Origin: a virus
Lineage: Duplodnaviria; Heunggongvirae; Uroviricota; Caudoviricetes
Virus record (IMG/VR): IMGVR_UViG_3300046513_000108
Span: 1-26,390 of that record
DNA: 26,390 bases
Strand: one strand, 5' to 3'
This document shows positions 21,873 through 23,731 of this stretch, piece by piece (the first letter of the stretch is position 1; every line of letters begins with the position of its first letter). The position numbers and the translations under genes were made by a program. Under the pieces are notes generated by a model that had not been told where the DNA came from, did not search any database, and was given only the letters and a program-made list of their open reading frames with translations.

Positions 21873-21903
21873 AAAGAAAGCTTACCACATTTCTGTAGTA
21901 AGC
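21871..21903 (-). terminator. Rho-independent terminator of the late (minus-strand) operon
   Basis: The minus strand reads GCTTACTACA-GAAA-TGTGGTAAGC-TTTCTTTT: a GNRA loop with a G-U wobble that pairs only on the minus strand. Confidence 0.75.
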
Positions 21904-21950
21904 CTAAAAAGTACAACACACATTATACTTGAAGTATCAAAGTAGCACAT

Positions 21951-21984
21951 GGGGGAGGTTTCCGCAAGGGAGCTTCCTCCTTTT
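21951..21984 (+). terminator. Rho-independent terminator of the plus-strand operon
   Basis: GGGGGAGGTTTCC-GCAA-GGGAGCTTCCTCC followed by TTTT; the G-U wobbles pair on the plus strand. Confidence 0.85.
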
Positions 21985-22357
21985 AATTTCTGCAAGAGTA
22001 TGTTAAAATAATCTTTCCGTCACGGAAGGCTTCTTCAGCCCATTGTGTTGAAAGGATTATTCTGCCCCTCTGGAACAGGTTTCCCATCGATCCCTTGTCG
22101 TTCAGCCCATTCTCTAGCTCGCCTAACAGTCTCGTCGTCAAATCGACTGGTACTTGTGGCTTGATGCTCAGATTGCACTGTCGTACTTGCTTCAAAGCCT
22201 CCTGCTGGCGTAGGATTGCTTGGCATAGCCTGTTGGGCTTCTCCCACGGCTCCCGGTTGCATTCCTCCAATACCGGCATGTTTCGACGTAATGAAGGTGA
22301 GGCAAGAGTTGATGAGCATGTAAAGGCTACCAGCAATATAATAAATAGTAGTTTCAT
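21983..22357 (-). CDS. putative exported/periplasmic protein (124 aa) overlapping the holin-like gene in the +1 frame
   Basis: SD GAGGT 8 nt before ATG 22357; signal peptide MKLLFIILLVAFTCSSTLA; four further Cys. It fills the otherwise empty 21985-22034 gap and stops at the terminator edge. Confidence 0.6.
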   Translation of the reverse strand: MKLLFIILLVAFTCSSTLASPSLRRNMPVLEECNREPWEKPNRLCQAILRQQEALKQVRQCNLSIKPQVPVDLTTRLLGELENGLNDKGSMGNLFQRGRIILSTQWAEEAFRDGKIILTYSCRN

Positions 22358-22523
22358 CAAGCCCAACCTCGATACCGAAGGATTTGAGAAGATTAAGTAC
22401 AACCACAATACCACCCACAACAGCAGGTAAGACTGTTGATTGTGCTTGCTTCCAGAATAGTTTGTTTCCAACTTCTTTCCCGAATTGAAAGAGTTGAAAG
22501 AACAACTTAAGTTTGGCGAACAT
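22035..22523 (-). CDS. putative holin-like 2-TM protein with long hydrophilic C-tail
   Basis: TAATG-coupled to the endolysin; TMs TVLPAVVGGIVVVLNLL and IYYIAGSLYMLINSCLTFI; polar low-complexity tail. Confidence 0.55.
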   Translation of the reverse strand: MFAKLKLFFQLFQFGKEVGNKLFWKQAQSTVLPAVVGGIVVVLNLLKSFGIEVGLDETTIYYIAGSLYMLINSCLTFITSKHAGIGGMQPGAVGEAQQAMPSNPTPAGGFEASTTVQSEHQATSTSRFDDETVRRAREWAERQGIDGKPVPEGQNNPFNTMG

Positions 22524-22936
22524 TATTTCACTCCGTATTCTTTCCGCAAAGCACCCATGTCAAGGTCTTTTTCTTGGAAATGTACATACTCTTTAAAGGA
22601 TTTCCAAGAACCGGCCCAATCTAATCCACACTTCTCTCCAATTTCTCCACATTGCTTATAAAGGTCAAGGTCATCCCACACAGCCTTGCCATTTACCACG
22701 ATGCAGATGTCAAACGCTCTACGGAAGTTGTGCGCAGAATATCCAGCTTTTGCATTGGTGACAATCCTGCCCGGAGTTGTTCTACCTTGTGCGTACAAGG
22801 CATTTTGTGATTCAAGGTCACGATATGTGGATGTCACAATAACATCAATTCCAGCATCCTTGCACATGGCAATAAACTTCTGGCAGCGATGTTGCATGTC
22901 ACCTGTTAGGTCGTTGACGTTTCTACTGTTAATCAT
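22523..22936 (-). CDS. endolysin, M15 family (CwlK/Ply500-like L-Ala-D-Glu peptidase)
   Basis: TYRDLESQNALYAQGRT...TNAKAGYSAHNFRRAFD (R; SxH...D) and EYVHFQ (E..H); LDWAGSW. Confidence 0.9.
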   Translation of the reverse strand: MINSRNVNDLTGDMQHRCQKFIAMCKDAGIDVIVTSTYRDLESQNALYAQGRTTPGRIVTNAKAGYSAHNFRRAFDICIVVNGKAVWDDLDLYKQCGEIGEKCGLDWAGSWKSFKEYVHFQEKDLDMGALRKEYGVK

Positions 22937-22947
22937 TATTTGTTCCT

Positions 22948-23226
22948 TTACTGTTTACTTCTAACTTCATCTAGCTTATCCTCAATACGATTAAGACGTT
23001 GATCCATCTTTGTTTCGTAATCTCGGAACATTTCTTTAATATCCCCAAGTGTGTCTTTTAAAGCTGTGTGGCTAACGTACACTTGAGCTACTATTGTTTT
23101 GAATTCTGCGAGGTCATTAGTTGCCTTCTCTGCTTTTGATTTTACATCTTGAAAGAGGAACCACAACACTGCTGCAAACGCGCCTAAAACAGCTTGTGCA
23201 ATCCACAATAAAACACTAGCTTCCAT
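22948..23226 (-). CDS. lysis-cassette protein, single N-terminal TM + coiled coil (holin/antiholin candidate)
   Basis: LLWIAQAVLGAFAAVLWFLF followed by a heptad-like tail RLNRIEDKLDEV; directly upstream of the endolysin. Confidence 0.55.
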   Translation of the reverse strand: MEASVLLWIAQAVLGAFAAVLWFLFQDVKSKAEKATNDLAEFKTIVAQVYVSHTALKDTLGDIKEMFRDYETKMDQRLNRIEDKLDEVRSKQ

Positions 23227-23227
23227 A

Positions 23228-23731
23228 TTAATCCTTCACGTAATTCAAAGTGTTTCCTTGAGAGAGTGCAGCTTGTATCACAGCGCTAGGTGTAGCTGTA
23301 TCTCCTAAAAATACTCCAGAGATGTTTCTACAGGCTATGACGAATTCACTACATTGCCATTCGTGGTTAGCACCAATCCTTAGTGTTTTGAGAAAGCCTT
23401 TGATTGCTTCTAGTTTAGAATATCCTCCTACACCTACTTCTGACAATGCATATTCTAATTCCTGAGAAGACATTGGTTTCTTCATCGGGACGTGATAGAA
23501 CCCATCTTTAGCATATTGAGACAGAGGTACAATGCGAATGAAAGGTGTGACAGCCTCTATTACAAATAATCTACCACTAACTTTCCAAATAAGTCCAACG
23601 TGGCTGTACTCACTCTCGGTGAAAAGCCTTACGGCTTGAATCTGTAAGTCTCTCCAAGAAGCCCATTCATAATGAGAGAGCGCAATTATGTCACCACTTT
23701 TAACATTCTTTCTGTATTCTGCGTATTTCAT
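23228..23731 (-). CDS. permuted papain-like NlpC/P60 (YiiX/YebB-type) protein
   Basis: KSGDIIAL, YSHVG (His before Cys), YSKL, QCSEFV and ATPSA. Confidence 0.8.
   Translation of the reverse strand: MKYAEYRKNVKSGDIIALSHYEWASWRDLQIQAVRLFTESEYSHVGLIWKVSGRLFVIEAVTPFIRIVPLSQYAKDGFYHVPMKKPMSSQELEYALSEVGVGGYSKLEAIKGFLKTLRIGANHEWQCSEFVIACRNISGVFLGDTATPSAVIQAALSQGNTLNYVKD

Follow-up and report, generated by a model that had tools for sequence, protein, structure and literature searches.

The lysis cassettes of phages lambda and P2 each carry a gene, Rz1 and lysC, respectively, that is read in the +1 frame and starts inside the last membrane-protein gene of the cassette, downstream of the endolysin gene. 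Both products are exported, bear periplasmic cysteines and an outer-membrane lipid anchor, and have a mature part of ~40 to 80 residues described as a Pro-rich coil; the genes in which they are embedded encode type II coiled-coil i-spanins, and P2 lysC extends beyond the stop codon of its host gene. T4 RI, the product of a separate gene, is small and holin-linked; a hydrophobic signal at its N terminus takes it to the periplasm, where it binds holin T, a class III holin, at the latter's large periplasmic domain. The PhiKT gp28 disruptin is a cassette-encoded candidate solution to the outer-membrane step in a spanin-less phage, and is a short cationic amphipathic peptide without a signal peptide. 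A second product can also come from holin-gene DNA, as with lambda S107/S105 and other holin-embedded antiholins, which use in-frame alternative starts and share the holin sequence; the literature that we found on genes "within the holin gene" concerned in-frame antiholins only. Among spanins, the overlapped architecture is the commonest (228 of 677 phages), o-spanins carry a lipobox of the form [LVI][ASTVI][GAS]C and up to four periplasmic cysteines, and unusual lipoboxes such as AWAC exist, while 91 of 677 phages of Gram-negative hosts, ~1 in 7, have no identifiable spanin (PMC6139136).

We analyzed a 26,390-nucleotide stretch of DNA from an uncultured soil phage (the window), in which an initial annotation had reported a second open reading frame (ORF) in the +1 frame of a holin-like gene; relatives of this phage share the overlapping-gene arrangement. 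Like Rz1 and lysC, the nested gene starts inside the last membrane-protein gene of the cassette, downstream of the endolysin gene, its product has periplasmic cysteines and is predicted to be exported, and it runs past the stop of its host gene as P2 lysC does. It differs from both in lacking a lipobox, and hence an outer-membrane lipid anchor, in having a mature part of ~105 residues that is predicted to be alpha/beta, and in being hosted by a holin-like gene with two transmembrane (TM) helices, and it has no sequence similarity to either. With T4 RI it has in common a small size, an N-terminal hydrophobic signal leading to a predicted periplasmic location, and a link to a holin-like gene; however, it overlaps that gene, it has no sequence or fold match to RI, and the holin-like protein has almost no periplasmic domain. 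The likeness to PhiKT gp28 is one of role only, the nested protein being predicted to be Sec-exported, Cys-rich, and near neutral. As with S107/S105, a second product comes from holin-gene DNA, but here it lies in another frame and is unrelated to the holin-like protein.

The lysis cassette and its nested gene

The features of the cassette and its surroundings are as follows (positions in the window, except for the last line).

23228-23731, minus strand: papain-like protein of 167 aa, a member of the late lysis cassette
22948-23226, minus strand: protein of 92 aa, encoded ahead of the endolysin gene, with a TM helix at its N terminus and a coiled coil
22523-22936, minus strand: endolysin of the peptidase M15/VanY type, 137 aa (Pfam PF13539/PF02557 and PHROG endolysin families)
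22035-22523, minus strand: host gene, 162-aa 2-TM holin-like protein in frame 0, its ATG overlapping the endolysin stop
22366-22370, minus strand: Shine-Dalgarno (SD)-like GAGGT, read directly, 8 nt before ATG 22357
21983-22357, minus strand: nested gene in the +1 frame, encoding 124 aa with the signal peptide counted and ending in TAA (21983-21985)
22301-22357, minus strand: Sec signal peptide predicted by a heuristic, manual call (residues 1-19; cleavage at TLA/SP)
21983-22034, minus strand: non-overlapping 52-nt tail of the nested gene, encoding ..EEAFRDGKIILTYSCRN and then the stop
21951-21990, plus strand: terminator of the convergent plus-strand genes, a hairpin (21951-21980) with a T-tract
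21878-21905, minus strand: terminator-like hairpin and T-run of the minus-strand lysis transcript, ~80 nt beyond the nested stop
G000:C1:77649-78020, minus strand, outside the window: the sole canonical lipobox ORF of the genome (LSAC), 120-123 aa

The nested ORF reads as the initial annotation had described it, with three corrections. Its ATG at 22357 on the minus strand and the GAGGT at 22370-22366, 8 nt upstream, are both present; it encodes 124 aa, ends at 21983, and shares 323 of its 375 nt with 22035-22523 in the +1 frame. The N terminus (MKLLFIILLVAFTCSSTLA/SP) and the C terminus (GKIILTYSCRN) are as claimed, and what had been called a textbook signal peptide is, by heuristic call, a signal-peptide-like N terminus with a conserved small-x-small cleavage motif. 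We also agree that AFTC is not a lipobox, the -1 residue being T instead of G/A/S. Cysteines 33, 45, 61, and 122 are present, as is a fifth, C14, in the hydrophobic region. The part of the ORF beyond the host gene does end at a hairpin, but that hairpin reads as the convergent plus-strand terminator, and a terminator-like site for the minus strand lies at 21905-21878. The T-tract of the convergent terminator overlaps the last two codons and the stop of the nested ORF. The +1 frame is open not merely from the ATG but across the entire host gene, from just past the endolysin stop, and the DNA that encodes the second TM helix of the host protein in frame 0 is the DNA that encodes the signal peptide in frame +1. 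At its C terminus, the nested protein has a 9-residue amphipathic strand rather than a TM domain (TMD). No promoter of its own was detected for the nested gene at this locus.

The host protein has hydrophobic segments at ~30-47 and 59-79, a strongly basic N terminus (K4, K6, K16, K21, and K25), an acidic loop of ~12 residues between the TM helices, and a disordered linker rich in P/A/S/T/E/Q in place of a periplasmic coiled coil. These traits bear out the earlier view of a 2-TM protein that is not Rz-like, and we rejected an Rz-type i-spanin on the grounds of the two TM helices and the missing periplasmic coiled coil. By the positive-inside rule, the C-terminal tail is predicted to be cytoplasmic, with only ~12 residues of loop in the periplasm. 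This topology speaks against the physical pairing of the nested protein with its host protein that had been proposed. The suggestion that the nested ORF accounts for the polar C-terminal tail of the host protein fared unevenly: a frame-0 GEAQQAMP forms a conserved island within the variable linker and corresponds to EKPNRLCQ of the nested frame, but the helix SRFDxxTxxRAxEW is conserved also in the absence of the nested gene. The host protein matched no Pfam or PHROG family, holin families included, and no homologs were found in cultured phages. By sequence and position, class II holin traits (two TMDs, a charged C-terminal tail, and an endolysin-adjacent gene) fit it in all loci.

The M15 endolysin of the window has neither a signal nor a SAR sequence, and a cytoplasmic endolysin needs a holin; either the 2-TM protein or the 92-aa protein could fill that role. 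The latter is a weak match to phrog_739 (Rz-like spanin; E 0.005), its gene is kept at the equivalent position in four relatives (L141, L007, L009, and L010), and it is a candidate second holin or lysis-accessory protein. Upstream of it, two relatives encode an extra protein of 112-131 aa with ~4 TM helices (L007:1778-2116 and L009:1869-2264), which is absent from the window and is a candidate for a further holin.

Conservation of the nested frame among relatives

An exhaustive profile search for the host-protein family gave 281 cluster representatives, and DNA was compared for the window and ten further lineages (L001, L007-L010, and L140-L144). In 11/11 loci, the 2-TM gene directly follows an endolysin gene and precedes a convergent gene block. 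The endolysin upstream of the 2-TM/nested pair is swapped among three unrelated enzyme families, with the pair and the convergent terminator staying in place: it is of the GH108 type in L007, L143, L140, L008, and L001, of the M15 type in the window, L009, L010, L141, and L142, and a T4-type lysozyme in L144 (L144:2045-2488). In L001, the GH108 endolysin gene is split from the 2-TM gene by an oppositely oriented HNH endonuclease gene (L001:373-939), which looks like a homing-type insertion. The hairpin core CCCTTGCGG, with its A-rich and T-rich flanks, is kept in L007-L010 and L143 and, standing between convergent gene blocks, has the layout of a bidirectional terminator.

The initial annotation had asked whether homologs keep the +1 frame open, and nine of the 11 diverged loci do contain the nested ORF (the window, L001, L007, L008, L009, L010, L141, L142, and L144). 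The frame-0 identity of these lineages to the window ranges from 29 to 62% and their GC content from 39 to 56%; the ORF persists where the frame-0 identity drops to 29-34% and across M15, GH108, and T4-lysozyme endolysins. In all nine, the start codon precedes a signal-peptide-like hydrophobic stretch and falls in the DNA for the loop between the host TM helices, at positions that are non-homologous among loci, often arising from a frame-0 Tyr-Glu/Asp/Gly codon pair. A good SD is present in 3/9 loci and weak or lacking in the remainder, and several starts would be TTG or GTG, with GGAG 6 nt before the TTG start in L001 and L141. By manual call, every N terminus (9/9) has a positive n-region, a hydrophobic core of 10-14 residues, and small residues at -3/-1, the small-x-small sites including TLA/S, AFS/R, TRA/S, SLA/T, and LQA/S. 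Four cysteines are invariant in the nine proteins, as is a motif xPN[RK]LCQ (E[KR]PN[RK]LCQ), and ELxNGLND is frequent.

The ORF runs 34-94 nt past the host stop in each of the nine loci, and this tail offers the cleanest evidence because it has no overlap with frame 0. Its pattern, hydrophobic-x-hydrophobic-x-hydrophobic-x-Cys-x-x-stop, is kept across loci despite differing codons: the Cys codon is TGC in three and TGT in five of eight loci, the ninth (L144) also having TGC, the stop is TAA, TGA, or TAG, and the window and L001 differ by an in-frame indel of 12 nt. In the two loci without the nested ORF, L140 and L143, the host stop abuts the terminator and there is no tail. The +1 frame of L143:643-1089 holds a shorter ORF (MMFFFLWLGCCSLL..TCQQC..RCWKLC) with a hydrophobic start and a CxxC...CxxxC arrangement, which ends before the host stop and could be either a remnant or an overprinted peptide of another kind. 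Upstream of the nested start, +1 stops occur in L010, L141, L142, and L144, up to host codons 38-46, and the start still lies directly before the hydrophobic stretch. In the window (22358-22490, minus strand) and in L001, L007, L008, and L009, the +1 frame is open for ~55 codons upstream of the nested start, a length for which the expectation is ~2-3 stops; this region of the five lineages yielded no conserved start, and independent initiation at the loop gives no explanation for its openness.

Alone among the 26 long genes of the window, the host gene has no +1 stop, the other 25 having 6 to 48. The phage codon usage predicts 6.4 for it, with none of 3000 resamplings stop-free, and its frame +2 contains 12-13 stops. 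Within the overlap, the eight ORF-bearing loci tested are all free of +1 stops, although 2.5-5.6 would be expected in each. The probability of no stop per locus is 0.0005-0.034 when codons follow genome usage and 0.006-0.44 when they are those of the gene itself. Since the value of 0.44 is that of the window, this sequence by itself does not settle the matter, and the argument depends on the comparison among loci: the product of the own-codon probabilities over the eight loci is ~4e-11, if the loci are independent. L140 and L143, which lack the full ORF, have one +1 stop each, so few that the stop depletion may be partly compositional, or the loss recent. Together, these counts indicate that the alternate frame has been held open across diverged relatives beyond chance.

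Identity in the two frames points in the same direction. For the overlap in the five closest lineages, +1 identity equals frame-0 identity (ratio ~1), as against a ratio of ~0.5 in the controls (the M15 endolysin and the host N terminus). The +1 frame is ahead between the window and L007 (0.47 versus 0.38 over the overlap) and in the PNRLC motif region (0.77 versus 0.70). When codons were redrawn wherever frame-0 residues differ, the observed +1 identity exceeded this null in 10/10 core pairs (z 2.9-4.8), with z of -1.4 to 0.4 for the identical pairs in the endolysin control. Frame-0 alternation among M, V, and L (ATG/GTG/CTG) is silent for the nested Leu and keeps the nested Cys of PNRLC. Closely related variants from the rhizosphere show four single-nucleotide polymorphisms in the overlap; three leave the nested protein unchanged and cause conservative missense changes in the host protein (V133I, F110V, and I85V), and one is the reverse. 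The suppression of frame-0 synonymous variation that had been anticipated was not seen, synonymous identity being 0.47 in the overlap, 0.45 upstream of it, and 0.42 in the endolysin gene. There was also no clear +1 periodicity of codon-position divergence in the linker, where divergence shows little periodicity in either frame, and a within-class codon-pair permutation null barely moved. The comparison as a whole points to purifying selection on the alternate frame, and the nested ORF is very probably a real translated gene.

Spanin hallmarks, homologs, and fold

A cysteine ends the hydrophobic region in seven of the nine nested proteins; in the other two, L001 and L141, the residues preceding the mature part include no Cys. 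Its context is AFTC in the window, LFTC in L009, LVLC in L007, LVVC in L010, VVLC in L144, STAC in L142, and LLC or LVC in L008. In place of G/A/S, position -1 is therefore occupied by T, L, or V in five of the seven (the window, L009, L007, L010, and L144) and by L or V in L008, and L142 has A at -1 but S instead of L/V/I at -3. With the lipobox absent or non-canonical, the nested protein is predicted not to be a lipoprotein and therefore not to be an Rz1-type o-spanin, a candidate that we rejected also for its host gene, which is not i-spanin-like. A unimolecular spanin of the T1 gp11 type was rejected for want of a lipobox and a C-terminal TMD.

The cassette contains no canonical Rz/Rz1 pair, as had been stated earlier, and neither does the whole 90-kb genome. 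The lone canonical lipoprotein ORF (77649-78020) has a glycine-zipper-like mature part, sits amid small early-type genes, and may encode an envelope or exclusion factor. Given its distance from the cassette and the lack of an adjacent i-spanin gene, the phage appears to be without a canonical spanin. The host bacterium is probably Gram-negative, judging from this phage lipoprotein ORF and from the GH108 endolysins in relatives.

Neither the nested ORF by itself nor a profile of eight nested sequences matched any of the called proteins in a 15-billion-protein collection. There was likewise no match in Pfam, PHROG, or cultured phages and no usable match in the ESM Atlas. Scans of IMG/VR and GTDB with a protein pattern or DNA motif returned chance matches only (hmmsearch check), a metagenome scan returned the L001 contig only, and no RNA run containing the locus was listed. 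AF2 modeled the full and mature proteins with low confidence (pLDDT 62-64, pTM < 0.3) as helix-strand-helix-helix-strand, the strands carrying C61 and C122, and Foldseek against AFDB clusters and the PDB gave nothing better than E ~2. As to a link with the outer membrane, we found no lipobox, no known outer-membrane-binding domain, and no homolog of known function.

Possible roles of the nested protein

The position of the gene and its export signal make a function in lysis the most likely one. The nested protein is the only product of the cassette predicted to be exported, and, taken with the cytoplasmic endolysin and the lack of a canonical spanin, this favors an envelope-side role, as does the place of its gene in a +1 overlapped arrangement, which the o-spanin fills in known phages. 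We tentatively prefer, at somewhat short of an even chance, to see the locus as an overprinted gene for a Sec-exported envelope-side lysis protein, a spanin substitute that is not a lipoprotein. The nested gene would be transcribed with the late lysis cassette (92-aa protein, M15 endolysin, and 2-TM protein) and its translation would begin at an internal start of its own, in the DNA for the loop that joins the host TM helices. The product would be exported via Sec and cut by signal peptidase I, leaving a mature protein of ~105 aa, soluble or peripherally bound in the periplasm, with the four invariant cysteines probably forming two disulfides and an amphipathic beta-strand at the C terminus. 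It would then perform the envelope-side lysis step, replacing spanin-type outer-membrane disruption. In the C-terminal strand, hydrophobic residues occupy positions -1/-3/-5/-7/-9, up to the last residue, a pattern that we take to resemble the beta-signal of outer-membrane proteins and that suggests how the protein might engage the outer membrane; beta-augmentation onto the BAM machinery or an outer-membrane protein would be one such route. That the protein represents a new class of lysis proteins that replace spanins, Sec-secreted, disulfide-locked, and attaching to or destabilizing the outer membrane through this strand without a lipid anchor, is an unlikely outcome but one that the locus brings into view.

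Two alternatives concern translation itself. If the nested ORF were not translated, its open +1 frame and the conservation of that frame would be by-products of composition and of the neighboring terminator. The own-codon probability in the window and the few +1 stops in L140 and L143 would fit, as would the unraised synonymous-codon identity; moreover, a +1 stop requires an NTN codon in the host frame, and the polar tail has few of these, and the T-tract of the convergent terminator extends over the last two codons of the ORF. We nevertheless regard this as quite improbable, since it leaves unexplained the four invariant cysteines and a tail strand that is encoded by different codons outside the host gene. 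Starts also recur at non-homologous positions just before a hydrophobic stretch, the excess of +1 identity is missing from the controls, and the tail is lost exactly where the ORF is broken. Programmed ribosomal frameshifting, by which the ribosome would reach the +1 frame from the host start and make a fusion of the first TM helix with the nested protein, would suit the five loci in which the +1 frame is open back to that start. It is extremely unlikely given the +1 stops upstream in four loci, the presence of a start codon of its own at every locus, and the lack of a slippery motif in the loop region, and the fusion would place the Cys-rich domain in the cytoplasm.

The remaining alternatives accept an exported product and differ as to its role. 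A divergent Rz/Rz1 pair, with the 2-TM protein as i-spanin and the nested protein as a lipoylated o-spanin with an odd lipobox, would match the lambda S-R-Rz/Rz1 order (TM protein, endolysin, and overlapped +1 pair last) and the Cys that ends the hydrophobic region in 7/9 proteins. Against this stand the two proteins without that Cys, the departure from the canonical lipobox at -1 or -3 in the other seven, and a host protein whose two TM helices, basic N terminus, and disordered linker should put its tail in the cytoplasm, which makes such a pair very unlikely. A lysis-timing regulator, either a periplasmic antiholin or sensor acting by the logic of T4 RI or a modulator of the endolysin, is easier to entertain: in known lysis cassettes, a holin is often accompanied by a regulator, as with phiKZ gp143, which binds a holin domain (PMC12894885), encoding the nested protein together with the holin-like gene would fix co-expression, and its N terminus could stay uncleaved or act as a SAR-type anchor contacting the holin TM helices. 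We rejected an RI-type antiholin by similarity, with no Pfam, PHROG, or fold match to RI or another regulator, and a periplasmic loop of only ~12 residues would leave little to bind. A regulator would also leave the phage without an outer-membrane step, and we think it rather unlikely; from genomic context, we favor the envelope-side spanin substitute over it. Finally, the protein could act outside lysis, in superinfection exclusion, envelope protection, or receptor masking, having been overprinted at this site only since the DNA for the second TM helix already supplied a signal peptide. There are small, disulfide-bonded periplasmic phage proteins that do work of this kind, such as T4 Spackle, and position alone ties the nested sequence to lysis. 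Yet a gene at the distal end of a late operon with no detected promoter would be expressed late, by which time exclusion brings little benefit, and the nested gene co-occurs only with this holin-like family, across three endolysin types, so that a role of this kind appears improbable.

An overlapping gene in a lysis cassette is a known theme, and what appears to be new here is the protein family. Outer-membrane breach by spanin-less phages is mostly unexplained, and this locus provides a conserved, previously uncalled candidate; as the nested gene can be disrupted without touching the host frame, the question is directly testable. The locus also bears on gene birth by overprinting, in that the +1 reading of DNA encoding a TM helix yields a ready-made signal peptide, and it indicates that lysis cassettes can hide overlapping genes besides Rz1.
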